A DNA stretch of 64,000 nucleotides from Escherichia coli (GTDB taxonomy: Bacteria; Pseudomonadota; Gammaproteobacteria; Enterobacterales; Enterobacteriaceae). The stretch is taken from assembly GCF_024502345.1 (NCBI RefSeq), contig NZ_JALDNN010000001.1. The stretch is one strand, 5' to 3'. The translations under genes and the position numbers were made by a program. The notes under the pieces were generated by a model. The model was not told the origin of the DNA. It saw only the letters and a list, made by a program, of their open reading frames with translations, and ran no database searches. Positions within the stretch are counted from its first letter, which is position 1. Every line of letters starts with the position of its first letter. Positions 20,145-47,782 of this stretch are shown here, piece by piece.

Positions 20145-20220
20145 GCCCGGATAGCTCAGTCGGTAGAGCAGGGGATTGAAAATCCCCGTGTCCTTGGTTC
20201 GATTCCGAGTCCGGGCACCA
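20145..20220 (+). tRNA. pheU: tRNA-Phe (GAA anticodon)
   Basis: 76-nt GCCCGGATAGCTCAGTCGGTAGAGCAGGGGATTGAAAATCCCCGTGTCCTTGGTTCGATTCCGAGTCCGGGCACCA with anticodon loop TTGAAAA and 3-prime CCA; position after yjdC corresponds to pheU. Confidence 0.97.
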
Positions 20221-25766: not shown

Positions 25767-26194
25767 TCCATTTTAATTTATCTACATCGCTTAAAGGCAA
25801 ATGATGCCACCGGCTACCAATTAAAAATTATCTCAACCTGAGAGATTTTTCCAGACTCCAAACGAAAATAAAAAACTACTCGTCACGTCCCTCCTGGCAC
25901 ATAGCCGACACCAAAACCAGCAACATATGGACAACGGTCCCTGCCCTGATGGCAGGTAATTGTATCAGACTTAAACACATATTATTTCTGTGAACTCCCC
26001 CCAACGGCAGTCCTTTCCTCTGAAGACCAGAACCAGACCGTAAAGCCTGCTCTTTCTGCATTTCCCGTATTAATTCATACCATGTGGCACCAGCATTCCC
26101 TTCGCCACACCAGAAAATCAATTCCCCAATAAAAAAGTGCCGTGCCGGGGATGGGTCAACCCTGACGTTCTTTACACCAGTCACAGGAGGTTAT

Positions 26195-27379
26195 ATGTCC
26201 ACCCCCAAACGCTTCCGTTTTACTAATCAGCTCATTAAATCCCTGCCCCCTAACACATCCGATGCACGCAGTACCGATGCCGAATACAGCGACACCGAGA
26301 TTTCCGGCCTCAAGTGTCTGGTCAGCAGAAGAGAAGGTCGTAAAAAGTTTTTGCTACGCTACCTTTATCATGGACGAAAACGCGCCATCGCCATTGGTCA
26401 CTGGCCTGAAGTGGACGTCAATCTTGCTCGTCAGATTGCCATAGAACACAAACGTTCCCTTGCCACCGGCACTGACCCTAAGCAGGAGCGTGAAAACAAG
26501 AGAATGGAGCTGACGTTCGATGAACTCTTTAATCAGCATTATCTGCCATGGGCAAAATCCGCTAAACGCAGTTGGGGAAAGGATGTTCAGCGCTACCGCG
26601 ATCATATCCGTCCCGCCATTGGTCAGAGGCTGCTGAGCGATATCACACCAGCGAGCATTCTGCGCCTTCAGCAGACGTTAAGTACTTCCCTGTCAGCAGC
26701 TACCTGTAACCGTGTCATCGTACTCATTAAAGCCGTCTTTACATGGGCCGGAAGGCAAAGCATGACCTCTGTCCATCCGGCAAGGGTGGTACAGCTTCTC
26801 AGGGAGAACAACGCCCGACAGCGCTATTTCACCGAGGACGAAATTCGTCGTATTTTTCTCTCCGCCGATAACGATACCAGCCCCGTCGCGGCCCGCTATG
26901 TCAAACTGTTGTTACTGACCGGCCTTCGTCGTGATGAGCTGCGTCTGGCTAAGTGGGAGCATGTTGACCCGGTTAAACGCACCCTGTGGCTCCCGGAAAC
27001 CAAGAATGGCTATGGGCGGATTGTTCACCTTAACTCACTGGCGATGGACGTAATCAGAACGCTGCCAACGCAGCGGGGAAATCCGTGGTTGTTTATCGGT
27101 AAAAAACAAGGAATGCCGCTGAATAACCCCGTTAAAGCCTTTCAGCGTATCGTTCGTCGGGCGGGAATTTTCGACCAGGAAGTGTGTATTCATACCTGCC
27201 GCCATTCGGTTGCCGCCCTCATCGTGTCCTACGGCGGAACACTGTATGACGTTCAGGCTCAACTGGGGCACCGCAGCAGTCAGTCTTCACAACGTTATGC
27301 GCATCTTCACCCTCAGCGCTTACAAAACACCAGTCAGTTACTGGCGGAAAGGATAACGGCTCAGCTACCGTCCTTGTGA
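26195..27379 (+). CDS. tyrosine-type site-specific integrase
   Basis: 394-aa ORF from ATG 26195 preceded by AGGAGG; catalytic boxes TGLRRDELRLAKWEHVD and HTCRHSVAAL...LGHRSSQSSQRYAHL (R, HxxR, Y). Confidence 0.85.
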   Translation: MSTPKRFRFTNQLIKSLPPNTSDARSTDAEYSDTEISGLKCLVSRREGRKKFLLRYLYHGRKRAIAIGHWPEVDVNLARQIAIEHKRSLATGTDPKQERENKRMELTFDELFNQHYLPWAKSAKRSWGKDVQRYRDHIRPAIGQRLLSDITPASILRLQQTLSTSLSAATCNRVIVLIKAVFTWAGRQSMTSVHPARVVQLLRENNARQRYFTEDEIRRIFLSADNDTSPVAARYVKLLLLTGLRRDELRLAKWEHVDPVKRTLWLPETKNGYGRIVHLNSLAMDVIRTLPTQRGNPWLFIGKKQGMPLNNPVKAFQRIVRRAGIFDQEVCIHTCRHSVAALIVSYGGTLYDVQAQLGHRSSQSSQRYAHLHPQRLQNTSQLLAERITAQLPSL

Positions 27380-27434: not shown

Positions 27435-27791
27435 TCAGAACGGGATGGCCCCATATTCTTCATCCGGCACCCGGTTATCATCAAATCTGTTATAGAGTTC
27501 ACGAGCACACTCGCGCGCGTCTTTAATAGACATACGAGGGAACCTGCCGAGGGGTTCATAATAGCAGGCCCCTTCAAGCGTATAACGAGCCAGGAATTTA
27601 ATCTCACCGTTGGCAATGACGGCCCGGAGCGCAGGCTCGCTGCCATCGAAGATTTCACGAGAAATGCCGTGATAAAGGCACTCCGCCAGTGTGTTAACCA
27701 GAGCGTAATCATTGAATGAGGTTTTTTCTTCATTTTCGCTGCTGATAGCGTGAGGAAAACCGTCATAGTACTGGTCTGATTCAAAAATCAT
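27435..27791 (-). CDS. hypothetical protein
   Basis: 118-aa ORF directly downstream of and co-oriented with the DUF927-like gene. Confidence 0.45.
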   Translation of the reverse strand: MIFESDQYYDGFPHAISSENEEKTSFNDYALVNTLAECLYHGISREIFDGSEPALRAVIANGEIKFLARYTLEGACYYEPLGRFPRMSIKDARECARELYNRFDDNRVPDEEYGAIPF

Positions 27792-27840: not shown

Positions 27841-29769
27841 TTAAAATTCGGTCATCACATTGCATTTCAGAAACGCTTTTTTGACCTGGTAGTAAGACTG
27901 CGCCATCGTCTTCAGCGCTCTTTTTTTATAGTGTCCGGCACTTTCGCCAAGCAGATAACCGGAACGCTCTAACGGTCTGGCCACATCAACGGTCTTAAGT
28001 CCCTTTTCAGAACAGAGCTTTTCAAACACCGATTCATAAATCAGGAAGTCGCCGGTTTTGTAATGGACGAATCCCCACATATCTCCCGGGCATCGGGCAT
28101 GTTCGTCACGCAGGGTGATAAAGTGCCTGCTGCTTTTTGTCACCAGCGTCAGCTGAAGCTCCTCCAGCATGTTACGCACCGGGTTATACTGATTCTGGTT
28201 ATCATCCAGCCAGCGTCGTGCAGCGGACATAACGGATTCAGCCACCGCATCGCTTTCGAAAGGTAAAAGGCCATATTTCAGCGCCTTCTCTCCTGCCAGC
28301 CATACCAGCGCAAATCTTTTCAGTCCGCGCCGCTGAACGCGGGTAATATCACGCCCCTCATCCCTCAGGGCCTCTTCCAGTGCGTTACAGCAATCATCTG
28401 TCTGTTCCTGGAGCCAGGATGAAAACTCTGCGTAGGTGCGAAGACCGCCAGCCGTATTTTTCCCGGATAACAGTTTGCCGATAAATGCAGGCCCGGCATG
28501 ACCATAAGCCTCTGCCAGCCCCGTCTTCAGTGCATCTGCACGGGCACGTGTTTCTGATACCGGTTCATCCGGTTTTTGAGCATCCTCAGGCAACAGTTCC
28601 ATACTGATGGCCCTGTGCTCCTGCCCTCCCTGTAACACGGCTTTCTGTTCAGCCAGCTTTTCGGAGATTGACATCTCACCGGTGGAGAGAATAAACATGC
28701 GCCATTTAAACGGCTCATCTGCCGTCAGGCCACGGTTCAGGCGCTCTTTTGCCGTACCTGACGTAATGTTGTAAAGCAGTGAGGAAAGTTGCTTATGATT
28801 ACTCGCACCCAGTTCATCGACGCAGGCGACCAGACCGGAATAGTCAGCGAGAAGGCGCTCCATCGCGTTAGGCGTGGTATTCCAGCGAATAATATTTACA
28901 TTCCCCCCACTACCCGGCTCGCTGCCATCACCATGGACCGATGCAGCCAGCATCAGGAGAAGCGTTTTACCGGTGGTGGATACGCCGTGAAAATGAAACA
29001 TGCCCACATCCATACCGGCAGGAACCAGAAGCATCGAAGCAAAGGACGCACTCAGTGCAAAGGTCTGCGCCCAGCCATGGACATTTTCCCGGATGAGGTT
29101 AATCCACTCCTCCAGGGCCCCACCTTTGTGCAGTCCGGGACGCACGCGGAATCCCGGCAGTAGATAATCAAACCCGGTCAGAGAGGTCACAACGGGCTCA
29201 TGACCATGTAAAAAGGCCATATCCTCCGAAACGAATCCCATCGCATCTGCCATCAGATAGACAGGCAGCGGTAAACTCCGGCAGCGCTGAAGAAAACGGT
29301 CAAAAAGGGCAAACTGCTGTGGAGAGGAGCCAACACAAAATCCACGATCTGCCAGTTTGCCTACTACCTGAGCACCGCTCTGAACAATATCCTCAAAGCG
29401 TACCAGGGCCTTAACATACTTACCCAGCCCGTTACCGGTCATCAGGCTGATCCCAAGACCGGACTCCTTATCTTTTCCACAAAACAGGGCGACAGGCACA
29501 ACTGGCGTGGTGCAAACCTGCACAGGTTTCTGTCCACCGATGTAGAAAAGGCCATTAGCCGTATTCACATAATGCCGTGGCAGCCCATCACCAATACCGA
29601 GTGAAGCGATATCATCTTCACCGACCTCAGTGTTTTCAGCACGCCTGATAATTGCTTCCGACATTTTGTTGAAATTTTTATCGCGGTCAGCAAAAGCGCG
29701 AATACGCTTAATCCCGGAAACCTTAGGAACATTAGTTGTCACTTTTTTATTCATGTGTATTACCATCAA
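27841..29769 (-). CDS. DUF927-type P-loop NTPase, putative replication initiation (primase/helicase-like) protein of an integrative element
   Basis: 642-aa ORF with Walker A GVSTTGKT and Walker B-like VACVDELG; co-oriented immediately downstream of an integrase gene. Confidence 0.6.
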   Translation of the reverse strand: MMVIHMNKKVTTNVPKVSGIKRIRAFADRDKNFNKMSEAIIRRAENTEVGEDDIASLGIGDGLPRHYVNTANGLFYIGGQKPVQVCTTPVVPVALFCGKDKESGLGISLMTGNGLGKYVKALVRFEDIVQSGAQVVGKLADRGFCVGSSPQQFALFDRFLQRCRSLPLPVYLMADAMGFVSEDMAFLHGHEPVVTSLTGFDYLLPGFRVRPGLHKGGALEEWINLIRENVHGWAQTFALSASFASMLLVPAGMDVGMFHFHGVSTTGKTLLLMLAASVHGDGSEPGSGGNVNIIRWNTTPNAMERLLADYSGLVACVDELGASNHKQLSSLLYNITSGTAKERLNRGLTADEPFKWRMFILSTGEMSISEKLAEQKAVLQGGQEHRAISMELLPEDAQKPDEPVSETRARADALKTGLAEAYGHAGPAFIGKLLSGKNTAGGLRTYAEFSSWLQEQTDDCCNALEEALRDEGRDITRVQRRGLKRFALVWLAGEKALKYGLLPFESDAVAESVMSAARRWLDDNQNQYNPVRNMLEELQLTLVTKSSRHFITLRDEHARCPGDMWGFVHYKTGDFLIYESVFEKLCSEKGLKTVDVARPLERSGYLLGESAGHYKKRALKTMAQSYYQVKKAFLKCNVMTEF

Positions 29770-29838: not shown

Positions 29839-31251
29839 TTACCCCATCGCCCGGTTAACGACTTCGTGGTAACGCGCCGGGGAAGCGTGCAAGTAAAGCT
29901 CCGTTACTTTGATAGTGCTGTGACCCAATAAGTCTTTGACGGTGTGAATGTCGGCCCCGCTCTCAATGAGCTTTGTCGCAAAGGTATGACGCATCTCATG
30001 GATGGTGAACGGTGGAATACCCGCAGCCTCACAAAGTCGTTTTTGCAGGCGACGCGGCTCAGCAACCGGATTGTCGGTTCCCTTGCCCGGAAATACCCAG
30101 CCTTCATCACCCAGATGCTGACGCTGTTCTGTCAGAAGAACGAAAGCCTTATCACATACCGGTACACGGCGTAGTTTGCCGTTTTTGGTATGGCGAAGGG
30201 TGATAACCTTGCGGCTCCAGTCCACATCTTCAAGACGAAGGTGACGGGTTTCCCCCAGACGCAGCCCCGTCAGGGCAAGGAACATGAGAAGAGCAAGGGC
30301 TTCATGATCGGGTTTACCATTACGCCAGCGCTCACAGACGTCCATCCAGCGCTGAAGCTGGGAGTCATCCATGGCACGGCGATCTGACGTCACTTCAGGC
30401 AGCGCTTTGATATAAAGCGCCGGAGAGCGGCTGATGTATCCCATGCGTATAGCCCAGGTAAACACCGCTTTAATGAGCGCCAGATGGCGGTTGCGGGTGG
30501 CAGGCTTGAGATCGAGATTATGCAGATAGCTCAGAATATCTGCCTCCGTCATACCTGCCAGCTTTTTGTCACCGAGAAGAGGGCGCAGGTATTTACGGAT
30601 CTTAGAAAGGTCGGTGTTAGCTGAACGCTTAACGCCCGTGCTGAGTACGCTTTTCTCATACTCATCCACAAGCTCATTAAACGTCATTTTACTGTGAGTA
30701 AGAAAACGCTCACCGTAAGCCTCAACGGCGGTCTTGAGCTCCTGAATTATTTTAAAGGCATGCTCCCTTGCATCTTTAATTGAAATTTCCGGGTAGCCTC
30801 CTACGGCAACGTAGATATTCTTTCCGCGAATACTTTTGCGGACAATAAATTTAATGCGACCTGATGGATAGAATATTGCCTTAAGTCCGGTTAACTTCTT
30901 ATCGCTGGTCTCGATTGTTTGTGCAGCTTGTACTGCACGGATTTTATATTCATCAAAAAGGGCTTTAGTAAAAACACCTCCAGTATTTTTAGGTGCAACC
31001 CCTGGATATTCTACAACATCAGATACTCCAGAGTCGGAATACCCCTGAGCTTCCACATCTACATTGAAGGAATTTTTATGAGCAGCTGTGATGCTCTTTT
31101 CATCCAGCACTTGCGTTATTTTATTTAAAGGGTAATTAACTTTCATAATATGTACATGGTCCTCTGAAAATTCAGATGATAATGAGTAATTTAATATGTC
31201 GGCCAACAATGGGATAAGCTTATTTATTCGTGGCATCACTTTCAAGCCCAT
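29839..31251 (-). CDS. tyrosine-type site-specific integrase
   Basis: ORF with catalytic boxes ALTGLRLGETRHLRLEDVD and HEMRHTFATKLIESGADIHTVKDLLGHSTIKVTELYLH; true start codon uncertain. Confidence 0.85.
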   Translation of the reverse strand: MGLKVMPRINKLIPLLADILNYSLSSEFSEDHVHIMKVNYPLNKITQVLDEKSITAAHKNSFNVDVEAQGYSDSGVSDVVEYPGVAPKNTGGVFTKALFDEYKIRAVQAAQTIETSDKKLTGLKAIFYPSGRIKFIVRKSIRGKNIYVAVGGYPEISIKDAREHAFKIIQELKTAVEAYGERFLTHSKMTFNELVDEYEKSVLSTGVKRSANTDLSKIRKYLRPLLGDKKLAGMTEADILSYLHNLDLKPATRNRHLALIKAVFTWAIRMGYISRSPALYIKALPEVTSDRRAMDDSQLQRWMDVCERWRNGKPDHEALALLMFLALTGLRLGETRHLRLEDVDWSRKVITLRHTKNGKLRRVPVCDKAFVLLTEQRQHLGDEGWVFPGKGTDNPVAEPRRLQKRLCEAAGIPPFTIHEMRHTFATKLIESGADIHTVKDLLGHSTIKVTELYLHASPARYHEVVNRAMG

Positions 31252-31423
31252 GAAAAATCAGCTCTTACATGCCCATTGACATTTAATACTCAAGTCAGAA
31301 AGACCATGATGATTCATCAGGAGTACTCCTGCTCAGGGAAAAGGGAAAATAGCGTTAAACCCTATAAAAAAATTGTGTTCCGGATGCATCGCCCAAAGTA
31401 AGTCAACTTTTGAGGCCCTGAAG

Positions 31424-32468
31424 GGCTTTGTTGAATAAATCAGATTTCGGGTAAGTCTCCCCCGTAGCGGGTTGTGTTTTCAGGCAATACGCACGCTTTC
31501 AGGCATACCTGCTTTCGTCATTTTGTTCAGCGCTCGTACCAGGGCCATAGCCTCCGCAACCTGACCATCGTAGTCACGCAGCGTCAGTGAACCCCCGAAC
31601 AGCTGTTTTACCCGGTACATCGCCGTTTCCGCTATCGAGCGACGGTTGTAATCTGTTGTCCATTTCCACCGCGCATTACGCTGATTAGCCACTGCACGGT
31701 TACGGTCTGCATATTCACCGGGCCAGTAACCCGCACCTTTTCGGGGAGGGATAAGCGCGCTGATTTTCTTACGCCGCAGTTCATCGTGACAGAGCCGGGT
31801 GTCGTAAGCGCCGTCTGCCGATGCTGCCCTGATTTTTCTGTGAGTCTGCCGGATAAGACCCGGGAAGGCTTCTGAGTCCGTCACATTGTTCAGCGACAGG
31901 TCAGCGCAGATGATTTCATGTGTTTTACTGTCAACGGCGAGATGCAGCTTACGCCAGATACGGCGGCGTTCCTGGCCATGCTTTTTGACTTTCCACTCGC
32001 CTTCACCGAAGACCTTCAGCCCGGTGGAATCAATTACCAGGTGTGCGATTTCACCCCGGGTGGGCGTTTTGAAACTGACGTTAACCGACTTTGCCCGCCT
32101 GCTGACACAGCTGTAATCCGGGCAGCGTAGCGGAACGTTCATCAGAGAAAAAATGGAATCAATAAAGCCCTGCGCAGCGCGCAGGGTCAGCCTGAATACG
32201 CGTTTAATGACCAGCACAGTCGTGATGGCAAGGTCAGAATAGCGCTGAGGTCTGCCTCGTGAAGAAGGTGTTGCTGACTCATACCAGGCCTGAATAGCTT
32301 CATTATCCAGCCAGAAAGTTATGGAGCCACGGTTGATGAGGGCTTTATTGTAGGTGGGCCAGTTGGTGATTTTGAACTTTTGCTTTGCCACGGAACGGTC
32401 TGCGTTGTCGGGAAGATACGTGATCTGATCCTTCAACTCAGCAAAAGTTCGATTTATTCAACAAAGCC
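31424..32468 (-). mobile_element. IS5-family, IS903-group insertion sequence
   Basis: 18-bp terminal inverted repeats GGCTTTGTTGAATAAATC at 31424..31441 and 32451..32468, flanked by a 9-bp direct duplication GCCCTGAAG (31415..31423 and 32469..32477). Confidence 0.9.
31480..32436 (-). CDS. IS903-group transposase (DDE)
   Basis: 318-aa ORF filling the IS; C-terminal segment DGAYDTRLCHDELRRKKISALIPPRKGAGYWPGEYADRNRAVANQR recalled as IS903-type transposase. Confidence 0.85.
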   Translation of the reverse strand: MKDQITYLPDNADRSVAKQKFKITNWPTYNKALINRGSITFWLDNEAIQAWYESATPSSRGRPQRYSDLAITTVLVIKRVFRLTLRAAQGFIDSIFSLMNVPLRCPDYSCVSRRAKSVNVSFKTPTRGEIAHLVIDSTGLKVFGEGEWKVKKHGQERRRIWRKLHLAVDSKTHEIICADLSLNNVTDSEAFPGLIRQTHRKIRAASADGAYDTRLCHDELRRKKISALIPPRKGAGYWPGEYADRNRAVANQRNARWKWTTDYNRRSIAETAMYRVKQLFGGSLTLRDYDGQVAEAMALVRALNKMTKAGMPESVRIA

Positions 32469-32799
32469 GCCCTGAAGTAAGAAAATGGTAATAGACCCCA
32501 CCGATTTTCGACTAAAAAACAACCCAATAAGGCATTTAAAATTAATGCTATTTAAATCAATAGATTAAAGTGATGATTTTGACAATATGCAGCCCAACTT
32601 AAGGGTAAATCAACCTTTCAACAATCAAAACCACACTCCATTAATTTTTATTATTGTGACAATCATCACATTTTACACCTGCGGGTGCTTTGATTTTGTA
32701 CATTCACAAAGCTCACCAACCCCAACGACTATGAACGTAAAAAACCTCTTTTTATGCACATATTATTTCCATGTAAATCAATTCATTATGGAGATAATC

Positions 32800-33153
32800 A
32801 TGTTCAAGCTCACGACACCCACCAGTCTTCCCCTTCTCAAACTGTCCGCCTCCGCGCTGGAAGCCCTCAGCAATGAAATCCTTGGCCCCGTCGATGATAT
32901 CGACCTGTTTACCGCCTTCTGGAACGAAACGGAAACCCTGCTCTGGCATCTCAACCATGATGACACGCTGCCCGAAGACCCGCTGCTGGCAGTTGCACTG
33001 GCTAACCCGGAATACGTCACCGCACTTGATGATGGCTGGTATCTGCTTCTCGGTATCGTCTGTGATAACGGACAGGGTATCTATCTGGTATTCCCGGACA
33101 CGACCATTATCACTCAACTCCAGAACCTGATTGAGGCGCTGAACCATGAGTAA
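32800..33153 (+). CDS. hypothetical acidic protein (gene 1 of the four-gene cassette)
   Basis: 117-aa ORF from ATG 32800 preceded by GGAGA; rich in D/E; stop overlaps the next gene start by 8 nt. Confidence 0.55.
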   Translation: MFKLTTPTSLPLLKLSASALEALSNEILGPVDDIDLFTAFWNETETLLWHLNHDDTLPEDPLLAVALANPEYVTALDDGWYLLLGIVCDNGQGIYLVFPDTTIITQLQNLIEALNHE

Positions 33154-33577
33154 GAAAAAAATCGCTACCGAAGCCGCCGTCATCGAAAGCTATACCGTGT
33201 TCTACAGGGGTGAAGCCGAGAAAATCAGTCCCCACAGTAAGGGTCTGCTGACGTATGAGTTGGGTAAAGAGGGTGAAACCGGAAGCCTTGCCCTGCGCTT
33301 AACCGCCAATGGCGAAGGGGGGCTGTTCTCCCGTGAATGGATAGCGCTTGATGCGATTCACGCCATTCTTGAACAACAGCAGGACAGTTTCCCGTCCCGG
33401 GTATTCCGCCCGCTGTTTGGTCAGGGCAGCACCAACAACGCCGGGTTTCTTGCCGCTGTACTGAGAAGCCCGGATATCTGTCTTATCGAGGCGGACAGCA
33501 GCAGACTCTTTATGCACCGCTGCTACGCCGACTGGCCGCATCGTATGACGCAGCTTGCCGCACTCAGCCAGGACTAA
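33146..33577 (+). CDS. hypothetical protein (gene 2 of the four-gene cassette)
   Basis: 143-aa ORF MSKKKIATEAAVIESYTVFYRGEAEK, translationally coupled to gene 1. Confidence 0.55.
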   Translation: MSKKKIATEAAVIESYTVFYRGEAEKISPHSKGLLTYELGKEGETGSLALRLTANGEGGLFSREWIALDAIHAILEQQQDSFPSRVFRPLFGQGSTNNAGFLAAVLRSPDICLIEADSSRLFMHRCYADWPHRMTQLAALSQD

Positions 33578-33623
33578 TCCCCACTTTTTCTGTGTTCCAT
33601 ACCCCTTAAAAAGGAAATTCACT

Positions 33624-34052
33624 ATGTCATCACCCGCTATATTGCAGGGCGGCTATGTGCTGCCTCTCTCCCGGTCGTTCACCCAACTGCTTCTGGATAT
33701 CCTCGCGCAAAAACCGCCTCATCGTCACCCCATCACCGGATTAACCATTAACTTCCGTGACCCTGAATACTCACCGGAAAAGGGCGGCTGGCATCCGGTC
33801 GAAATACGCCTCATCCCTGCCGGAGAAGACTGGCAGCTCGATTACGTCACCGATTTTCACTATGCAGGACATCCATGGCCTGAGCTTGAAAAAGATGTCG
33901 ATGTGAGCTGGACGCAACAATACACGTGGCTTTCCCGTTGTGGCGATATCTCTCATGTCGACGCCCGTGAGTTCTGGTCGCTATGGGAAAGTAACTTTAT
34001 GGCTTACCACGATATGGGGGTTTTCACGGTCCGTACGTTGTGGGAAAGCTGA
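33624..34052 (+). CDS. hypothetical protein (gene 3 of the four-gene cassette)
   Basis: 142-aa ORF from ATG 33624 (MSSPAILQGGYVLPLSRS), 46 bp after gene 2. Confidence 0.55.
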   Translation: MSSPAILQGGYVLPLSRSFTQLLLDILAQKPPHRHPITGLTINFRDPEYSPEKGGWHPVEIRLIPAGEDWQLDYVTDFHYAGHPWPELEKDVDVSWTQQYTWLSRCGDISHVDAREFWSLWESNFMAYHDMGVFTVRTLWES

Positions 34053-34110
34053 GTGTTCACTACGTTTCCCCCGCATCCCCCCTCTCCCCCATAGTAAGGA
34101 ACTGAATGTT

Positions 34111-34575
34111 ATGTACCGGCTTCTGCTGCTTAACTTCGTGGATTCATTTATCGATAACTGCATTCTGTCCTGCGTCGATGAACCGGCTTACGGCGGTATC
34201 GTGCAGTGCGAACTGCTTTTTGGCCTTGCCGCACACAGCGGTATCTATGTGGGTAACGGCGATATTGTTCATCTTGATGGCGATGGAACCGTTATCAAAA
34301 GTAAGGCTAAAGGTTTTCTTGACCGGCTCGATGGCTGGAACTCCGCTATCTCGGTGTATACCGACTGTATGGATTTGACGCCTCAGGGTTGTGCGCGGGC
34401 CGCTGAACGGGCAAAGGCGGCAGTGGGTCAGCGCTATCCTTATAGCCTGCTCGACTTTAACTGCCACCGGTTTACTGCCCGCTGCGTTACCGGCGATTCG
34501 TGCCCTGATATCTGGCTTGCCAGACACCTCGATACATTTCAGAAAGGGGACCGATGGCGCGTATGGCAACGATGA
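34111..34575 (+). CDS. LRAT/HRASLS-like papain-fold enzyme (gene 4 of the four-gene cassette)
   Basis: 154-aa ORF with AAHSGIYVGNGDIVHL (His42, His54) and DFNCHRF (Cys118), matching the LRAT-family His-His-Cys arrangement and NCEHF-type motif. Confidence 0.65.
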   Translation: MYRLLLLNFVDSFIDNCILSCVDEPAYGGIVQCELLFGLAAHSGIYVGNGDIVHLDGDGTVIKSKAKGFLDRLDGWNSAISVYTDCMDLTPQGCARAAERAKAAVGQRYPYSLLDFNCHRFTARCVTGDSCPDIWLARHLDTFQKGDRWRVWQR

Positions 34576-34793
34576 AAGCCAGCCGTTGCAGGCAACGTGT
34601 CACCGGACAGGGAGAACGGCTTATCCGGCTGACCATGGTGCTGTTTTACGGTCAGACAATATCTGTTCGCTACATCATCCGGCAGTTTGACGTGTCTCCC
34701 CGCACAGCAAGACGGGACCTCGCTCAACTGGCCTTTGTGCTGGAATCCGCTGGCCCTCACCTCTGGCGACTGGCTCCCTCGCTGAAACCCTGA
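34554..34793 (+). CDS. small HTH protein or N-terminal fragment of a WYL-type regulator
   Basis: 79-aa ORF with HTH-like segment TISVRYIIRQFDVSPRTARRDLAQL, resembling the N-terminus of the WYL regulator at 36249; overlaps the end of the LRAT-like gene in another frame. Confidence 0.4.
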   Translation: MARMATMKASRCRQRVTGQGERLIRLTMVLFYGQTISVRYIIRQFDVSPRTARRDLAQLAFVLESAGPHLWRLAPSLKP

Positions 34794-34867: not shown

Positions 34868-35254
34868 ATGATGAAAATTTCTAAACTGTTAACCGCCACA
34901 CTTCTGCTTTCAGCCTTCAGCCACAGCGCATTTGCCGACGAGCAGGCTGACGCTCAGATGATAACCAACTCGACCTTCTGTGCGATGTACTCCACCCGCC
35001 TGACCCAGACCAGTGACAGCGGCCTTCAGGTAAAAGGCGTCAATCTCAATGCCCGCATCAACGGACCGGTATTCAACAGGGTACTTCAGGTGATGAACAA
35101 AACCTATGGCAGAACCTGGCTCGAATCAAATGCCCGTAACGGCAGCATGACCGCCATGCAGCTTTCGCAGTCGGAGCTGCTTTATAACCCGGAATATGCC
35201 CGGCAGTGCGATGCCTTTGCGGATAAAGTGGAAAAGGAATGGCGCGGAAAGTAA
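34868..35254 (+). CDS. hypothetical secreted protein
   Basis: 128-aa ORF with N-terminal signal peptide MMKISKLLTATLLLSAFSHSAFA; followed by a terminator. Confidence 0.6.
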   Translation: MMKISKLLTATLLLSAFSHSAFADEQADAQMITNSTFCAMYSTRLTQTSDSGLQVKGVNLNARINGPVFNRVLQVMNKTYGRTWLESNARNGSMTAMQLSQSELLYNPEYARQCDAFADKVEKEWRGK

Positions 35255-35287
35255 TCCCGACGCGTTATACCTCCATCCGGTGAACAG

Positions 35288-35314
35288 AAACCTGCTTTCG
35301 GGCAGGTTTTTTTT
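35288..35314 (+). terminator. rho-independent terminator
   Basis: AAACCTGC-TTTCG-GGCAGGTTT hairpin followed by a T run. Confidence 0.8.
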
Positions 35315-35396: not shown

Positions 35397-36146
35397 ATGG
35401 CTACCTACCGACACGACCCTGATCTTGAATTTCTGCGCCACTGCCATCGTGACGATCTGGATTTACTGGTTTCTGTGCTTATCTGCGATCCGAAAGACGG
35501 ACTGGCACGCATCACGGAAACGCTGACCTATGATCCTCAGTATAAAAAACACAAGCCCAACCACCCGCGCTACTGGGATGCCATTGCCGCCGAGGTTCAG
35601 ACGTTTGGGGCGAACAGCTTTGCCACGCTGCTCCGCTGGGGTAAAGGGGTGCTGTACCGGGAAATTCTCACCGATGCCTGCGATAAAATGAAGGTGAACT
35701 ACAACAACAAATCCAGTGTTGAAACCATTGAAATGAATCTGCTGATGAAGATCCTGGAGAAAAGTCTTGAGAAGATGACGCCTGACCAGCTAAAGACCGT
35801 GGCGGAAGAATTGCAGACAGGCTACAGCAACCCCACGCCGGAGTTGCTGACCATGGCAATCCAGGCGGGGATAAAAACATCCGGGTTTGCGGCCTATCAG
35901 ATGGCACTTGTTGTCACAAATGGTGTGGCGAAAGCCCTGTTAGGCAGAGGGCTGACCGTTGCAGGAAATGCCATGCTGACGCGTACCATGGGCGCTTTTG
36001 CCGGTCCCGTGGGCTGGGTGCTCAGTTCTCTCTGGCTGCTGATTGATTTAGCCGGTCCCGCATACCGGGTGACGCTACCATCCTGCATTTTTATTGCCTA
36101 CATGCGCCAGAAGCATCTTTATTCACCTGAGAATACTGACGTTTAG
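35397..36146 (+). CDS. YaaW-like protein (UPF0174/DUF3944 family)
   Basis: 249-aa ORF; N-terminal DLEFLRHC and C-terminal GPVGW...AYRVTLP segments resemble E. coli YaaW as I recall it. Confidence 0.55.
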   Translation: MATYRHDPDLEFLRHCHRDDLDLLVSVLICDPKDGLARITETLTYDPQYKKHKPNHPRYWDAIAAEVQTFGANSFATLLRWGKGVLYREILTDACDKMKVNYNNKSSVETIEMNLLMKILEKSLEKMTPDQLKTVAEELQTGYSNPTPELLTMAIQAGIKTSGFAAYQMALVVTNGVAKALLGRGLTVAGNAMLTRTMGAFAGPVGWVLSSLWLLIDLAGPAYRVTLPSCIFIAYMRQKHLYSPENTDV

Positions 36147-36248: not shown

Positions 36249-36962
36249 ATGACGCTGATAACACAAGAAAACGAACATGACAGACTGGCAACCCGCCTTT
36301 CCATCATCCTGAGCCGTTTGTTTCAGGGTGAAAAGCTGCATATCGGGACGCTGGCAGAAGAATTTGGAGTGACGACGCGAACGCTGCGACGGGATTTCAA
36401 CGTCCGTCTGACCTACCTTGATATTGAACAGAGCAACGGCGTGTATCAGCTTGCCTCACATTACTTTCGTCGCCGCACGGAACGGGATATGAAGATACTG
36501 GCGAGGTTGCTGCATCTTGACCGTCTGTTACCCGCGATGGATGCCAAACTACTGAGCCTGATGCTTGACGGGGAACGTCCCTCGCCATACAGGATTATGC
36601 TACCGGAGCCGCGCCAGAAACCCACCCTTTTCGGTGATTTCAGCAGACTGACGCTCGCCATACTTAACCAGACCCAGGTGCGTATCAGAACCGACGAAAA
36701 CGTCAGCCATACCGTTCATCCCTACCGTCTGCTTTGCAGCCATGCGGAGTGGTTTCTTGCCGGATGTACGTCATCGGGCGTGTTCGTTATTTCCCTGTCC
36801 CGAATCAGGCTGGTTGAGGTATTACCGGATACAACGTTTGAGATCGATAACACACTCATTTCGCTGATTGAACAGTCTGACTTTATGGAAGCCTTACCCC
36901 ACATGAACATTATTCATCAGATAATGCATTACGGGAGTAAACAGACGAATAATCGTAATTAA
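36249..36962 (+). CDS. WYL-domain transcriptional regulator (BrxR/CapW-like)
   Basis: 237-aa ORF with N-terminal HTH (HIGTLAEEFGVTTRTLRRDF) and WYL-type motif (HPYRLLCSHAEWFLAGC); sits upstream of restriction genes. Confidence 0.7.
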   Translation: MTLITQENEHDRLATRLSIILSRLFQGEKLHIGTLAEEFGVTTRTLRRDFNVRLTYLDIEQSNGVYQLASHYFRRRTERDMKILARLLHLDRLLPAMDAKLLSLMLDGERPSPYRIMLPEPRQKPTLFGDFSRLTLAILNQTQVRIRTDENVSHTVHPYRLLCSHAEWFLAGCTSSGVFVISLSRIRLVEVLPDTTFEIDNTLISLIEQSDFMEALPHMNIIHQIMHYGSKQTNNRN

Positions 36963-37002: not shown

Positions 37003-37332
37003 ATGATAAGTGAGAAAGTTATGATTATCGATAAAGAATACGCACTTGTAAATGCAACAGCAAGACTTAACACTGACCTGAGGGATTATGAATATGAAAT
37101 AAACAACGCCGCCATCATAACATTTGGCAATGACCTCATTGAGGTAATCGTATATCAGTTCAGCTTTGTCATCAGCATCAGGGCAGAGGGTGAAAAAATA
37201 AAGCACGGCCTACTTGTTAACTTCGGTAAAAATATAGCAAGACAGGTTTCATCACTTTGTGCATCCGCAATGCGAGTCTACCCGAATGAAAAACACAAAC
37301 CGAGCCGTCAGCTTTTCCATTGCATAAATTAG
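37003..37332 (+). CDS. hypothetical protein
   Basis: 109-aa AT-rich ORF between the WYL regulator and the type IV restriction gene; may be non-coding. Confidence 0.3.
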   Translation: MISEKVMIIDKEYALVNATARLNTDLRDYEYEINNAAIITFGNDLIEVIVYQFSFVISIRAEGEKIKHGLLVNFGKNIARQVSSLCASAMRVYPNEKHKPSRQLFHCIN

Positions 37333-37393: not shown

Positions 37394-39271
37394 ATGAGGT
37401 TTATGATGGCTGGCCAGTATGAAAAAGCAATAACGATAAAACAAGCGATAGATTCAATTAATTTACGCCACTATCTTCTGCCTGCAATTCAGAGGAAGTT
37501 CGTCTGGAGCAGCAGTCAAATATGTTTGCTGTTTGATTCCATCATGCGAGACTACCCGATAAACTCTTTCATGATGTGGGATATCCGTAGTGCCAGTATT
37601 AAAAATGATTACAAATTCTATGAATTCCTGAAAGAATACTGTCAGCGATTTAATGAAGAAAACCCCTGCGTAGCAACAAATGCTGGATTTCATGATTTCA
37701 AGGCGGTGATTGATGGTCAGCAGCGTCTCACATCATTATATATTGGATTGTGTGGAACGTATGCGTATAAACAGCCCCGGGTGTGGTGGCCTTCGGCACA
37801 GGATGATCGCATCCTGCCGCCCAGAAAGCTTTACGTCGATTTAACAGCGCCACTTAATTCAGACGATGAGCTCATGATGAAGTATAACTTCAGGTTCCTG
37901 ACCGACAAGCAATACGCTGATTCACTTACAGACAACAAGCATCACTGGTTCTGCCTGCACGAAATATTCAAATACGAGCAACATGATTCGCCTGATGATA
38001 TTTTATTTAACGTTGTCGTACCAGAACTCGAAAAAAGAGGACTCATTTCCAGTGAATTTTCCAGAAAAACATTACTGAGACTTTATACAAAAATAAGAAC
38101 TGAGAACATCATCCACTACTTCAATGAGAGTAGTCAGGATATTGACCATGTGCTGGATGTTTTCATACGCACGAACAGCGGGGGGACAAAACTTGAGTTC
38201 TCCGACTTACTGATGTCAATAGCGGTAGCGCACTGGCAGGGTGATTTCAGAAGAGAACTGGATGAACTGACAAAAAACATTTATCAGAATAATGAAATGG
38301 GGTTTTATATTGAAAGAGACTGGTTCTTAAAAACCAGCCTGATGCTTATTGACTCTGACGTCCGGTTCAAAGTAAAAAACTTCACTTCAGAGGAGGTCGG
38401 TAAGATACAACAACAATGGTCTGAAATAAAATCCTGCATCAAGGAGACTTTTATTCTTATCAGGCGATTCGGCATCAATCCACAGTCTTTGATATCTAAA
38501 AATGCAGTCATTCCTGTGGTCTACTGGCTTTACAAAAAGCAAACCAGTGGACATCCATTATATACAACGATTAACCTCCTGAATAAAAACCACAATGAAC
38601 GCTCAGTAATTAGCCAGTGGTTTTACATGGTACTTCTGAAAGGGATCTTTGGAAGCCAGGCAGATGCGCTACTCACGAGTATCAGAGATGTAATGAAAAA
38701 TAGTCTTTCAGATATTCACTTTCCTCTTGAAAAGATTATTGACAGATATAAAGGCTCGAATAAAGACCTCAGATTTGACGACGAATACATCGAAAGCCTT
38801 CTCAATATCAGATATGGCGAAGGTCGTTGCCGCGCACTATTGCATCTTCTGTTCCCTGAAATGAATCCGACCGAGGTGTTTCATATTGATCACCTTCACC
38901 CAAGAAATCACTTCTCAAAGAAATATCTTGAAAAATTAGATTATGTTGCGAACTCACCAGAGAACCTCAGCTTTTATGAAAACCCGGAACACTGGGACAC
39001 CATACCTAATCTTCATTTACTGAATCATTCTCAGAATATAAGTAAACAGGATACTTCCCTGAAACAATGGCTATCTCAGCCATCAAACAACTATTCGCCA
39101 TCAATGCTGTTAGTTTCAGATGAAAATATTGAGTTCAGTCGCTTCCCGGAATTCTACAATGAACGAAGAAACGCCCTGAAGCAAAGACTACTGAATCGGG
39201 TATTTCTTACAACAAAAATAGATTCATCACCATCCACAATCGATACGGATGAAGAAATTCTCACCGACTGA
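37394..39271 (+). CDS. GmrSD-family type IV restriction endonuclease (DUF262 + DUF1524)
   Basis: N-terminal DUF262 hallmark DGQQR (in KAVIDGQQRLTSLYIG) and C-terminal His-Me finger-like HIDHLHPRNH; likely start at ATG 37406 after GAGG. Confidence 0.8.
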   Translation: MRFMMAGQYEKAITIKQAIDSINLRHYLLPAIQRKFVWSSSQICLLFDSIMRDYPINSFMMWDIRSASIKNDYKFYEFLKEYCQRFNEENPCVATNAGFHDFKAVIDGQQRLTSLYIGLCGTYAYKQPRVWWPSAQDDRILPPRKLYVDLTAPLNSDDELMMKYNFRFLTDKQYADSLTDNKHHWFCLHEIFKYEQHDSPDDILFNVVVPELEKRGLISSEFSRKTLLRLYTKIRTENIIHYFNESSQDIDHVLDVFIRTNSGGTKLEFSDLLMSIAVAHWQGDFRRELDELTKNIYQNNEMGFYIERDWFLKTSLMLIDSDVRFKVKNFTSEEVGKIQQQWSEIKSCIKETFILIRRFGINPQSLISKNAVIPVVYWLYKKQTSGHPLYTTINLLNKNHNERSVISQWFYMVLLKGIFGSQADALLTSIRDVMKNSLSDIHFPLEKIIDRYKGSNKDLRFDDEYIESLLNIRYGEGRCRALLHLLFPEMNPTEVFHIDHLHPRNHFSKKYLEKLDYVANSPENLSFYENPEHWDTIPNLHLLNHSQNISKQDTSLKQWLSQPSNNYSPSMLLVSDENIEFSRFPEFYNERRNALKQRLLNRVFLTTKIDSSPSTIDTDEEILTD

Positions 39272-39474
39272 ACGTTCAGCCCCGATAGTATTGGGGCTTC
39301 AGTATTTATCATCAGCGCAACGTTTCTACTGGCCTGGCTGAAAGAGCATTGGCTACACAACCGGGCAAACGAACTCTCAGTGCAACGTATGACATACAAA
39401 GCCTGTCATCAATATGAAATTGCGATAAAATCGGGCCAATAACAGTACTTAAGAATCATACAACAGGATACAAA

Positions 39475-41031
39475 ATGACAAGCCTTCAGCAGCGTGCAGA
39501 GCTACACCGTCAAATCTGGGCCATTGCCAATGATGTCAGAGGCTCCGTAGATGGGTGGGATTTTAAACAGTATGTACTCGGTGCACTTTTCTACCGCTTC
39601 ATCAGTGAGAATTTTTCCAGCTACATGGAAGCAGGGGATGAGAGCATACATTATGCAGCACTTGATGACAGCATCATTACCGATGACATCAAAGACGATG
39701 CCATCAGGACTAAAGGCTATTTCATCTACCCGAGCCAGCTGTTCTGCAACGTTGCCGCTAAAGCGAACACCAACGACAGGCTGAATGCTGATTTAAACAG
39801 TATCTTCGTCGCTATAGAAAGCTCTGCCTACGGCTACCCGTCAGAGGCCGACATCAAAGGCCTGTTCGCCGATTTCGATACGACCAGCAATCGACTGGGG
39901 AACACAGTTAAAGACAAAAACAGCCGTCTTGCCGCGGTTCTGAAAGGGGTTGAAGGGTTAAAACTTGGTGACTTCAACGAACATCAGATTGACCTGTTCG
40001 GTGATGCCTATGAGTTCCTGATTTCTAACTATGCCGCAAATGCCGGTAAGTCAGGCGGTGAGTTCTTTACACCGCAGCACGTCTCCAAGCTGATTGCACA
40101 ACTGGCTATGCACGGGCAGACCAGCGTTAACAAAATCTACGACCCGGCAGCGGGTTCCGGCTCACTGTTGTTGCAGGCGAAAAAACAGTTTGATAACCAC
40201 ATCATCGAAGAAGGCTTTTTCGGTCAGGAAATCAACCATACGACCTATAACCTGGCGCGTATGAACATGTTTTTGCACAATATCAACTACGACAAGTTTG
40301 ATATCAAGCTGGGTAATACACTGACTGAGCCGCACTTCAGAGATGAAAAACCGTTTGACGCCATCGTATCTAATCCACCGTATTCGGTGAAATGGATTGG
40401 CAGCGATGACCCGACGCTGATTAACGATGAACGTTTTGCCCCGGCTGGCGTTCTGGCCCCCAAATCCAAAGCTGACTTTGCGTTTGTATTACATGCACTG
40501 AACTATCTTTCTGCCAAAGGTCGTGCTGCGATTGTCTGCTTCCCGGGTATTTTTTACCGTGGCGGCGCAGAGCAGAAAATCCGTCAATATCTGGTCGACA
40601 ATAACTATGTCGAAACCGTGATTTCACTGGCACCGAACCTGTTCTTTGGCACCACCATTGCCGTCAATATTCTGGTGCTGTCTAAACATAAAACGGATAC
40701 CAAAGTTCAGTTTATTGATGCCAGCGAATTATTCAAAAAAGAGACTAACAACAATATCCTGACCGATGCCCATATCGAACAGATTATGCAGGTATTTGCC
40801 AGCAAGGAAGATGTTGCTCATCTGGCGAAATCTGTCGCGTTTGAGACCGTTGTCGCTAATGACTATAACCTGTCGGTGAGCTGCTATGTAGAAGCGAAAG
40901 ATAACCGCGAAATTATCAATATTGCTGAGCTAAATGCAGAGCTTAAAACTACGGTTAGCAAAATCGACCAGTTGCGTAAAGATATTGATGCGATTGTGGC
41001 TGAAATTGAAGGCTGCGAGGTGCAGAAATGA
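39475..41031 (+). CDS. hsdM: type I restriction-modification system methyltransferase subunit
   Basis: 518-aa ORF with SAM-binding [11 protein letters not shown] and catalytic NPPY (IVSNPPYS) motifs. Confidence 0.9.
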
Positions 41032-42200
41032 GCGAGTTGAGTTATCTGGAAAAATTGCTGGATGGGGTTGAGGTTGAGTGGAAATCATTGGGAGATGTTG
41101 TAAATTTTCAGCGCGGAAGGCGGCTCGTAAAATCTCAGTTAGAAACCAGAGGTAAATATGCGGTTTACCAAAACAGCATGACACCACTCGGTTACTATCA
41201 TGAGTATAATGTCGCAGCTCAATCTTCGTTCATTATCTGTGCGGGTGCAGCCGGTGAAATTGGTTATAGCGAAAATGAATTTTGGGCTGCCGACGATGTT
41301 CATTTCGCAATCACACCAGAATATATAAATGACAGGTTTTTGTTTCATTTTTTGTTGACGCAAAAGAATAAAATTTCAGGACAAGTACGCCGTGCCAGTA
41401 TTCCGCGTCTCTCAAAGTCAGTAATTGAAAAACTTGAATTCCCCATCCCCTGCCCGGATAATCCGGAAAAGTCCCTTGCCATCCAGTCTGAAATCGTTCG
41501 GATTCTGGATAAATTTACTGCACTTACCGCTGAGCTTACCGCTGAGCTTAACATGCGTAAAAAACAGTACAACTACTATCGCGACCAGTTGCTGAGTTTT
41601 GATGAGGGTGAGGTTGAGTGGAAGGCTTTGGAGGAAGTCTCAACTTTTGCTAATGGAAAGGGGCATGAAAAAGACATATCAGAAGACGGTAAATATATTG
41701 TTGTAAACTCTAAGTTTATATCTACCAATGGCGAAGTCGCCAAGTTATCAAACAAACAGCTATGCCCTCTTTTTAAAGACGATATTCTTTTGGTTATGAG
41801 TGACCTGCCCAATGGCAAAGCACTTTCAAAAACATTTATTGTTGATGAAGATCATAAATACACTTTAAACCAACGTATTGGTGGAATTACAGTAAAAAAC
41901 AGTAATGAATTACTCCCTAAGTTTTTGCACTATTTTTTAAATAGAACCCCGCAATTGCTGAAACATGACAATGGTGTTGATCAAACAAATTTGCGTAAAG
42001 GTCAAATACTTGAAGTAAAAATACCAATAATTTCACTCATCAAACAAGTTCAGATCGTTGAAACTCTTGATAAATTCGATACTTACACTAAGTCGATTTC
42101 AGAAGGCCTCCCGCGCGAAATCGAGCTGCGCCATAAACAGTACGAGTACTATCGTGATTTATTGTTCAGCTTCCCGAGACCAGAAACCGCCAGCAACTGA
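41028..42200 (+). CDS. hsdS: type I restriction-modification system specificity subunit
   Basis: 390-aa ORF with two target-recognition halves and repeated conserved segments (EVEWKSL...[15 protein letters not shown]; EVEWKAL...[15 protein letters not shown]); start overlaps the hsdM stop. Confidence 0.9.
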
Positions 42201-42316
42201 CGGACCATTGATACCGGCAGGGTTTGTTCTCACCCGCCCGGTATCAGGCTTTAAGAATGCCGGAAGATGCTTCTGATACCCTTCCGGAATTTGCCAGATG
42301 ACGCACAGGATGCACC

Positions 42317-45300: not shown

Positions 45301-45433
45301 TGGGACGGAGCTAAATGAGACGCTACCAAAGCTCAGTCCGCTGAATCCTCAGTACAAAACGAAAAAGCAGACTGTATTCCAGAAAATTGGGGCATTTATC
45401 GAAAAATTTAAAGGGGTTGGAGGACACCTCTAG
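42317..45433 (+). CDS. hsdR: type I restriction enzyme R subunit (helicase/endonuclease)
   Basis: 1038-aa ORF with helicase motifs RPYQ, TGSGKT and DECH (IFDECHRSQ). Confidence 0.9.
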
Positions 45434-46270: not shown

Positions 46271-46319
46271 GGGATTGAAAATCCCCGTGTCCTTGGTTCG
46301 ATTCCGAGTCCGGGCACCA
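46271..46319 (+). repeat. 49-bp direct repeat of the tRNA-Phe 3-prime end (island junction, att-site core)
   Basis: GGGATTGAAAATCCCCGTGTCCTTGGTTCGATTCCGAGTCCGGGCACCA is identical to tRNA-Phe positions 20172..20220. Confidence 0.95.
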
Positions 46320-46516: not shown

Positions 46517-47782
46517 ATGGCACTGACTGACGCAAAAATCCGGGCTGCAAAGCCCACTGACAAGGCTTATAAACTCACTGACGGGGCCGGCATGTTCCTG
46601 CTGGTTCATCCTAATGGTTCCCGTTACTGGCGTCTCCGTTATCGTATTCTGGGTAAGGAGAAAACCCTGGCACTTGGTGTGTATCCGGAAGTTTCTCTCT
46701 CCGAAGCTCGTACAAAACGGGATGAGGCCCGAAAACTGATTTCGGAGGGGGTTGACCCTTGCGAACAGAAAAGAGCTAAAAAAGTAGTCCCTGATTTACA
46801 ACTCTCTTTTGAACATATTGCACGACGCTGGCATGCCAGTAATAAACAATGGGCACAATCACACAGCGATAAAGTACTCAAAAGCCTCGAGACACACGTT
46901 TTCCCCTTTATCGGCAACCGGGATATCACAACACTCAGTACCCCGGACCTGCTTATCCCTGTTCGTGCTGCAGAAGCTAAACAAATTTATGAAATCGCCA
47001 GTCGTCTGCAGCAAAGAATATCTGCTGTAATGCGTTATGCCGTACAGTCTGGCATCATCAGATATAACCCGGCTCTGGATATGGCTGGTGCATTGACCAC
47101 GGTAAAACGCCAGCATCGCCCTGCTCTGGATCTTTCACGCCTGCCTGAACTTCTGTCGCGTATTGACGGTTATAAAGGCCAGCCTGTCACCCGACTGGCA
47201 GTTATGCTGAATTTACTGGTTTTTATTCGTTCCAGTGAACTCAGATATGCCCGCTGGTCTGAAATTGATATTGACAATGCCATGTGGACTATTCCAGCCG
47301 AACGCGAACCTCTGCCAGGCGTAAAATTTTCATACCGGGGCTCCAAGATGCGAACACCACATCTTGTGCCACTCAGCCAACAGGCTGTAGCCATACTGGC
47401 AGAACTTCAGACATGGGCAGGTGAAAATGGTCTGATCTTTACGGGAGCACATGACCCACGTAAACCAATCAGTGAAAACACCGTAAATAAAGCCCTGAGG
47501 GTTATGGGGTATGACACAACCCAGGATGTCTGTGGTCATGGATTCCGGGCGATGGCATGTAGTGCATTAATAGAATCAGGTTTGTGGTCCCGCGATGCTG
47601 TGGAACGCCAGATGAGCCATCAGGAGCGTAATGGTGTACGTGCTGCGTATATCCATAAAGCCGAACATCTGGAAGAACGTCGACTTATGCTACAGTGGTG
47701 GGCCGATTTTCTGGATGCAAACAGAGAAAGATTTATCAGTCCATTTGAATATGCAAAGATTAATAATCCATTAAAACAATAA
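46517..47782 (+). CDS. P4-type tyrosine integrase
   Basis: 421-aa ORF MALTDAKIRAAKPTDKAYKLTDGAGMFLLVHPNGSRYWRLRYR (P4-like arm-binding N-terminus) and catalytic HGFRAMA...RAAYIH; 197 bp after the tRNA-derived repeat. Confidence 0.9.
   Translation: MALTDAKIRAAKPTDKAYKLTDGAGMFLLVHPNGSRYWRLRYRILGKEKTLALGVYPEVSLSEARTKRDEARKLISEGVDPCEQKRAKKVVPDLQLSFEHIARRWHASNKQWAQSHSDKVLKSLETHVFPFIGNRDITTLSTPDLLIPVRAAEAKQIYEIASRLQQRISAVMRYAVQSGIIRYNPALDMAGALTTVKRQHRPALDLSRLPELLSRIDGYKGQPVTRLAVMLNLLVFIRSSELRYARWSEIDIDNAMWTIPAEREPLPGVKFSYRGSKMRTPHLVPLSQQAVAILAELQTWAGENGLIFTGAHDPRKPISENTVNKALRVMGYDTTQDVCGHGFRAMACSALIESGLWSRDAVERQMSHQERNGVRAAYIHKAEHLEERRLMLQWWADFLDANRERFISPFEYAKINNPLKQ

Follow-up and report, generated by a model that had tools for sequence, protein, structure and literature searches.

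Comparison with pipolins

The core of the gammaproteobacterial pipolins, as described by Mateo-Caceres et al. (Nucleic Acids Research (NAR) 2024, PMC11551731), comprises piPolB, two integrases, a DUF2787 protein, a WYL regulator and 'two orphan proteins' encoded beside an integrase; pipolin-like islands without piPolB are mentioned there in passing. The present study concerns a block of four genes, g1–g4 (positions 32800–34575), in a 64-kb stretch of the Escherichia coli contig NZ_JALDNN010000001.1, referred to below as the window. With a probability that we put at about 60%, this block belongs to the integrase-proximal backbone operon (g1–g6) of a 26-kb pipolin-sister element located at tRNA-Phe, an operon which would serve the life cycle of the element and which carries an accessory LRAT enzyme acting on lipids or amides.

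Gene g1 (32800–33153, + strand) encodes an acidic protein of 117 amino acids (aa) from an unnamed family, g2 (33146–33577, +) a 143-aa protein of a large unnamed family, g3 (33624–34052, +) a 142-aa DUF2787 protein, and g4 (34111–34575, +) a 154-aa LRAT/PLAAT-type permuted papain-fold protein, which is a facultative member of the operon. Genes g1 and g2 overlap by 8 nt, which suggests translational coupling, the gaps between g2 and g3 and between g3 and g4 are 46 bp and 58 bp, and a Shine–Dalgarno-like motif (GGAG, GAGG or AAGGA) can be read before all four starts. An earlier sequence-only reading of this DNA, which presented the block as a candidate for an undescribed defence or toxin–immunity module, had described the four co-oriented open reading frames (ORFs), their sizes, overlap, gaps and ribosome-binding sites in the same way. 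The same four coding sequences are annotated by RefSeq in related E. coli genomes, the first two as hypothetical, the third as DUF2787 family and the fourth as a lecithin retinol acyltransferase family protein. The ratio of nonsynonymous to synonymous substitution rates (dN/dS) against relatives is 0.03–0.28 for g1–g4, so they are genuine coding genes under purifying selection. Among 5,426 complete E. coli genomes, 113 carry the cassette, each time in whole form (113/113 occurrences), and it was also found in Buttiauxella, Kluyvera, Enterobacter, Pseudoalteromonas and Thalassotalea, which bears out the co-occurrence outside this strain. None of the four genes has a PADLOC-DB 2.0 match at E ≤ 0.01, but adjacent genes do match JukA, WYL, SIR2 and HerA.

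In E. coli, the loci L149–L151, located after uvrC-pgsA at the insertion site published for pipolins, contain homologues of g1 (3e-36), g2 (5e-54), g3 (2e-56) and of g9, a 109-aa backbone protein encoded in the window at 37003–37332 (+) (1e-43). The gene order of these pipolins is integrase, g1, g2, DUF2787, a g5-like helix-turn-helix (HTH) protein, WYL regulator and g9, followed by an 866-aa PolB-like protein, a small HTH protein and a second integrase. The PolB-like protein has a weak match to Pfam DNA_pol_B_2 (0.016), and a metagenomic homologue matches phage DNA polymerase PHROGs (3e-9). A profile of nine PolB-like proteins from g2-carrying loci scores strongly on the 866-aa polymerase of L149–L151, and it matched no ORF of the 64-kb window; two ORFs of ~830 aa in the window coincide with genes that matching E. 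coli records annotate as heavy-metal P-type ATPases. Since the window contains no such polymerase, its element is a piPolB-less sister of pipolins rather than a pipolin sensu stricto, the defining gene of which encodes piPolB, a primer-independent family-B DNA polymerase.

In other respects, the resemblance is extensive. Homologues of g1, g2, g3, g5, g8 (36249–36962, +; a WYL-domain HTH regulator and pipolin core marker) and g9 follow each other beside an integrase in the same order in L149–L151. The window element possesses two tyrosine recombinases, namely the integrase at 29839–31251 (−), the counterpart of that preceding g1 in relatives, and the second integrase of the backbone at 26084–27379 (+), next to which, as in pipolins, lies a gene for a small DNA-binding protein (27435–27791, −; Arm-type, possibly an excision factor). 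The tRNA-Phe gene (20145–20220) ends in a left direct repeat (20198–20220, +), and the identical 23 nt occur again as the right repeat at 46297–46319 (+); these copies of the tRNA 3' end therefore delimit an island of ~26 kb. Insertion into a tRNA gene with repeats and a variable defence cargo are likewise shared with pipolins. The differences consist in a DUF927 replicative helicase (27841–29769, −), which occupies the place of piPolB, and in the insertion at tRNA-Phe, not tRNA-Leu. Compared with the E. coli pipolins, the integrase of the window is divergent from g1, not co-directional, and the window has an LRAT gene between DUF2787 and the HTH gene, plus g6 and a JukA-like gene. Judging by this sequence comparison, g1, g2, g3, g5, g8 and g9 make up a backbone common with pipolins, and LRAT, g6 and the JukA-like gene are additions of this lineage. 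The caveat of the sequence-only reading, that the four might be conserved hypothetical genes of CP4-type islands, came close to this result, except that the backbone is pipolin-like and not CP4-like.

Two of the E. coli pipolins, L150 and L151, carry between the g5-like HTH and WYL genes a 272-aa alpha/beta-hydrolase-like gene (11046–11864, −; GHSLG motif, weak DUF726/LCAT matches), which is split in L149. It is an unrelated second lipid-hydrolase-like enzyme near the position that LRAT has in the window.

Gene order in relatives

Related loci were collected in two independent scans, one seeded with LRAT in 100,044 species genomes and the other seeded with g2, on the basis of a narrower g2 alignment, in metagenomes; in both, genes were labelled by iteratively built profiles. 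Nearly all of the 80 metagenome loci seeded with g2 alone displayed the order integrase, g1, (DUF1232), g2, DUF2787. Counted per g2 cluster at 70% identity, g1 lay upstream of g2 in 16/16 and an integrase did so in 12/13, with DUF2787 following downstream in 14/16. In Enterobacterales, Aeromonadales and marine Gammaproteobacteria alike, g1, g2 and g3 are co-inherited with the integrase, whatever the defence cargo.

LRAT follows DUF2787 in four of the 13 independent lineages (g2 clusters, 70% identity), g1–g3 occurring without it in nine. The g2-carrying elements possess a large PolB-like gene or, alternatively, a DUF927 helicase, and the replicase accompanying LRAT is DUF927 in 37 loci (many redundant) versus PolB in one (L094); LRAT is thus facultative and typical of the DUF927 lineage. 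In Tatumella and a related lineage, LRAT accompanies g1 and g2 while DUF2787 is missing, and all four genes are found in order, with 31–38% identity, in Pseudoalteromonas and Thalassotalea. Across lineages, the identity of LRAT to the window protein falls about in step with that of g2 and g3; this comparison is more informative than a co-evolution test of LRAT against g1–g3, which was underpowered with only seven independent lineages and yielded weak correlations (0.0–0.5). The LRAT gene of the enterobacterial and related lineages has the backbone genes g3 and g5 on either side, and its stop codon overlaps the start of g5. The slot after DUF2787 in the marine and metagenomic relatives L063, L099, L140 and L145 holds genes for a TIR protein, a type I HsdR, PDC-M14A and a PARIS AriA-like ATPase.

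A pangenome study of 244 Vibrio strains reported that LRAT, two DUF2787 genes, an integrase and RNase HI were gained and lost together; this cluster was not reported there among those associated with phage infectivity.

Proteins g1, g2 and g3

The strong acidity noticed earlier for g1 is confirmed by an isoelectric point (pI) of 4.05, with 18 Asp and Glu versus 2 Lys and Arg residues. Members of the g1 family are always encoded immediately upstream of g2 and share W41, PE[YF] and DxGxGxY. HMM searches revealed for g1 no Pfam match and no relative among PDB sequences, and the PHROG matches of the cassette proteins, including phrog_32947 for g1 (2e-12), are families of unknown function. For g2, the profile search of PDB sequences found no match, and Pfam gave none for g2 or for 67 of its relatives. 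The g2 family comprises 684 representative clusters at E ≤ 1e-3 with the motifs GGLFSxEW and NNAGFLAAVLR. The predicted structure of g2 (predicted local distance difference test score, pLDDT, 91) contains a three-stranded sheet followed by a winged-helix-like C-terminal half, and comparison of the model with known folds gave weak winged-helix matches.

The g2 family was detected in none of 50,697 phage records, in two of 72,556 plasmids (tblastn) and in one IMG/VR contig; the inspected plasmid copy, from Aeromonas, has the order DUF1232, g2, DUF2787 and then integrase. A phage or satellite origin was considered and rejected in view of the single IMG/VR hit and the absence of hits in the phage records.

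Gene 3 had been said to match nothing recognisable, which does not hold. It matches the DUF2787 profile (PF10980) and shares the fold of VC0508 from the Vibrio cholerae VSP-II island (PDB 2W56 / 2V1L), a solved homologue; as no function is assigned to VC0508, only the fold can be named from the match. The best-conserved DUF2787 motif, YxxExGGFhPVEiR, aligns locally with the PsiB segment GEYGSEFGGFFPVQVRF (PDB 3NCT) with an E-value of 0.096, the alignment taking in profile positions 39–65; the fold test found no shared overall fold between PsiB and g3. The DUF2787 family numbers at least 1,951 clusters. Two E. coli loci beside mutS (L152, L153) represent another integrase-bearing island that has DUF2787 without g1 or g2, and the family is therefore broader than the pipolin-type backbone.

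The LRAT-type protein g4

The LRAT/HRASLS arrangement proposed earlier for g4 is confirmed. The protein matches Pfam LRAT (PF04970; i-Evalue 3.6e-9, residues 29–130) and contains the motifs AAHSGIYVGNGDIVHL (H42, H54) and DFNCHRF (C118; N117-C118-H119-R-F). H42, N117, C118 and H119 are invariant in 92/92 relatives; the second histidine, H54, is kept in 55 of the 92 and replaced by Glu, Asn or Ala in 34. The comparison with PF04970 and NlpC/P60, which had been proposed as a check, places the PLAAT proteins first: a profile of g4 relatives found HRASLS2 (4e-7) and PLAAT3 (~2e-6) in the PDB ahead of the NlpC/P60 peptidases LytE (4e-4) and MepS (0.05). With PLAAT/HRASLS and LRAT proteins (PF04970; NlpC/P60 superfamily), g4 shares the permuted His...His...Cys order and the NCxHF-type motif, but it is a cytoplasmic bacterial protein that ends in a conserved WRVW motif, with no C-terminal transmembrane anchor; neither a signal peptide nor a hydrophobic C-terminal helix is visible in its sequence.

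Many unrelated bacteria encode LRAT relatives, either on their own or fused to vWA or DUF3944 domains. Most of those with <40% identity (Helicobacter, Rheinheimera and many others), as well as a 50%-identical copy in Neisseria, have no g1–g3 nearby. Outside pipolin-like elements, no partner gene recurs beside LRAT across genera; the sole recurring cross-genus neighbour 'family' proved to be an artefact, an antisense ORF over the LRAT motif, and the remainder was species-level synteny (Rheinheimera). Searching the literature, we found nothing linking LRAT to phage defence.

Several fusion proteins were observed among these relatives. In a Gracilibacteria metagenome-assembled genome (MAG; L058, 7559–8785), one 409-aa ORF combines an N-terminal DUF3944/JukA-like part (2e-34) with a C-terminal LRAT domain (5e-13). 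Proteins of ~550 aa in Rhodoferax, Photobacterium, Psychrobacter and others (L037, L054, L055, L057, L059) have the LRAT domain at the N-terminus; the C-terminal part of those from L037, L054 and L057 bears a DxSGS motif resembling the metal-ion-dependent adhesion site (MIDAS) typical of vWA domains.

Upstream region and probable continuation of the operon

The insertion noticed earlier just before the cassette is an IS5-family (IS903-type) insertion sequence (IS) at 31424–32468 (−), located in the integrase–g1 intergenic region. Its 18-nt terminal inverted repeats are intact, and it is flanked by a 9-bp target duplication (GCCCTGAAG), the span including the duplications being 31415–32477. It ends 331 bp upstream of g1. 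The DNA left between the IS and g1 aligns column for column with the uninterrupted locus L001. Lying in the divergent integrase–g1 promoter region, the insertion may have altered the expression of both the integrase and the operon.

Upstream of g1, a pair of 21-nt inverted repeats (32567–32587, AAAGTGATGATTTTGACAATA; 32652–32672, TATTGTGACAATCATCACATT), 64 nt apart, may represent operator sites. The repeat is exact in five close relatives only, and elsewhere in the window it has one match with three mismatches (5780–5796), probably due to chance.

Gene g5 (34554–34793, +), overlapping g4 by 22 nt, encodes a basic 79-aa HTH protein of the DeoR/WYL-N type (pI 11.7), the counterpart of which sits directly after DUF2787 in the E. 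coli pipolins. It is followed by g6 (34868–35254, +), encoding a 128-aa protein with a signal-peptide-like N-terminal segment and confined to the enterobacterial lineage and the close relative L003. Gene g6 is the last before a strong terminator-like hairpin (35286–35311, +; 11-pair stem and T-run), which is likely to be the end of the g1–g6 transcription unit. The unit thus probably runs through g5 and g6, and the compact four-gene cassette of the sequence-only reading would then be part of a longer operon.

The island and its surroundings

The characterisation of the island as rich in defence genes proved correct. Between tRNA-Phe and the backbone lies a SIR2-HerA anti-phage system (21072–24520; PADLOC SIR2 2.7e-154, HerA 2e-252; GC content ~40%). 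Gene g7 (35397–36146), directly before g8, encodes a JukA-like protein (DUF3944/YaaW) with a strong PADLOC match to JukA. The right-hand cargo (37394–45433) consists of a DUF262 (GmrSD-like) gene and a complete type I restriction-modification system (hsdM, hsdS, hsdR). The 26–37 kb block has a GC content of 49–54% and the flanking cargo 39–46%. Gene g9 adjoins piPolB in the E. coli pipolins and directly follows LRAT in Tatumella.

The JukA-like gene of the window, which recalls the Juk (JukA/JukB) system directed against jumbo phages, is followed by a WYL/HTH regulator. A preprint on Juk described an Escherichia jukA paired with an Xre-family regulator, for which it reported that JukA alone blocked PhiKZ-like phages. 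The window differs from Juk in that g7 is outside the cassette, beyond the terminator-like site, no JukB was found, and the link to g4 is one distant domain fusion.

The DUF927 protein is related to the cassette chromosome helicase Cch1 of replicative islands of the staphylococcal cassette chromosome mec (SCCmec) type (2.2e-22), the match being far below the family cut-off; this relationship suggests that the island replicates after excision. The recombinases, which are tyrosine integrases in the window element, the host range and the accessory genes differ from those of the SCCmec islands.

Right after the second repeat, a further integrase (46517–47782) starts another element in tandem; among the annotations of matching E. 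coli records here are a phosphoethanolamine transferase, an outer membrane protein and a type I restriction subunit. In E. coli records, a heavy-metal resistance region matches positions 52600–64000 with 100% identity; it comprises two P-type ATPases, a cation diffusion facilitator (CDF) transporter and CueR- and Cd/Pb-responsive regulators.

Proposed role and alternative explanations

The genomic context described above suggests that the operon would serve the element itself, by controlling its excision, replication or maintenance, rather than the immunity of the host. The small Arm-type DNA-binding protein holds the position of the pipolin excisionase. The winged-helix-like g2 and the HTH protein g5 may bind element DNA, perhaps at the inverted repeats upstream of g1, the acidic g1 could be a partner or an antagonist of g2, and DUF2787 might act as an adaptor. 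Considering its conserved residues, g4 is most likely an active Cys-His enzyme that works through a Cys-acyl intermediate, either hydrolysing or transferring the acyl chains of inner-membrane phospholipids.

Several points weigh against this interpretation. The life-cycle role of g1, g2 and DUF2787 is drawn solely from their linkage, and a position in the backbone is compatible with a defence or addiction role as well. That g1 and g2 are the 'two orphan proteins' of PMC11551731 is most likely but not certain. Known defence cargo follows DUF2787 in LRAT-less lineages, which places LRAT at or near a cargo hotspot, so it could itself be cargo. A simple sigma-70 scan of the DNA from the IS to g1 found no consensus promoter, at variance with the promoter-like region noted there earlier.

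The last but one of these points bears on the main alternative, which seems unlikely, namely that LRAT, alone or with g5, is a defence or abortive-infection gene in a cargo slot, degrading or remodelling inner-membrane phospholipids on a phage or stress signal, with g1–g3 as mere neighbours. The patatin-like phospholipase CapV acts in this way in the cyclic-oligonucleotide-based antiphage signalling system (CBASS). The HsdR, AriA, PDC-M14A or TIR genes in the same slot of other lineages, the strictly conserved catalytic residues, the stand-alone or vWA/DUF3944-fused relatives in many bacteria and the packing of the rest of the island with defence genes are all consistent with such a role. However, in the enterobacterial and related lineages LRAT is enclosed by the backbone genes g3 and g5, overlapping the latter, and its divergence tracks that of the backbone, unlike what recent exchange would produce; nor is there a PADLOC model, a literature link of LRAT to phage defence or a partner recurring across genera. 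A partnership of LRAT as effector with the JukA-like sensor g7, in a Juk-type system with a lipid-acting effector, is highly improbable. The Gracilibacteria fusion of DUF3944/JukA-like and LRAT domains speaks for it, as does the report in the Juk preprint of JukA fused to a patatin-like phospholipase and paired with variable effectors, but in most lineages LRAT occurs without DUF3944, a terminator-like hairpin separates g6 from g7, and the same preprint reported that an Escherichia JukA was sufficient for immunity alone.

It is very unlikely that g1–g4 constitute one four-component defence or toxin–immunity system, in which LRAT would be the effector or toxin, the acidic g1 an inhibitor or immunity protein, and the other two proteins, g2 and g3, would act as sensors. 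The tight, co-oriented packing with the g1/g2 overlap, the joint presence of all four genes in every one of the 113 E. coli occurrences, the same order in Pseudoalteromonas and Thalassotalea and the purifying selection on all four genes would fit it, but the model is weakened by the fact that g1–g3 occur without LRAT in nine of 13 lineages, canonical pipolins included, and that LRAT accompanies g1 and g2 in the absence of DUF2787 in Tatumella and the related lineage. In addition, the trio is integrase-linked nearly everywhere, including on the inspected plasmid, and the g2 family is missing from phage records. The discrete undescribed module of the sequence-only reading is accordingly not supported; g1–g3 are a pipolin-type core that exists with or without LRAT. 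As for g1–g3 themselves, there is little to recommend the possibility that they are establishment or anti-defence genes acting on entry, like leading-region genes of conjugative plasmids, with g1 as a DNA mimic and DUF2787 as a PsiB-like modulator of RecA and the SOS response. The very acidic g1 and the local alignment with PsiB (E 0.096) point in this direction, but the alignment spans 27 residues only and the fold test failed, g1 has no detectable PDB relative, and neither a relaxase nor an oriT was identified in the element.

Implications for pipolin-type islands

The core genes discussed here are already in print, two of them nameless and with no function given, and the DUF927/LRAT sister lineage is only alluded to there. 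A more far-reaching idea, quite speculative and decidedly unlikely, is that the g1–g2–DUF2787 trio, with LRAT or another lipid-acting enzyme as variable output, is a machine for the persistence or spread of pipolin-type islands, which have no conjugation or capsid genes. Such a machine might be a device for release or vesiculation that acts on the membrane, a module for post-segregational killing, or an immune sensor encoded by the backbone and combined with an exchangeable effector from the slot after DUF2787, e.g., LRAT, TIR or, in the E. coli pipolins, the alpha/beta-hydrolase. If true, this would explain how pipolin-type islands persist or spread.

The analysis also contains a warning, since conserved backbone genes in defence islands, when read in isolation, can resemble novel defence systems. 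Pipolins and related elements, which are self-replicating genomic islands, are widespread as vehicles of defence genes, and one integrase-proximal gene set is common to the true pipolins and the DUF927/LRAT sister lineage; the shared backbone genes are natural targets for deletion studies, for which the 113 E. coli carrier genomes provide a tractable system.

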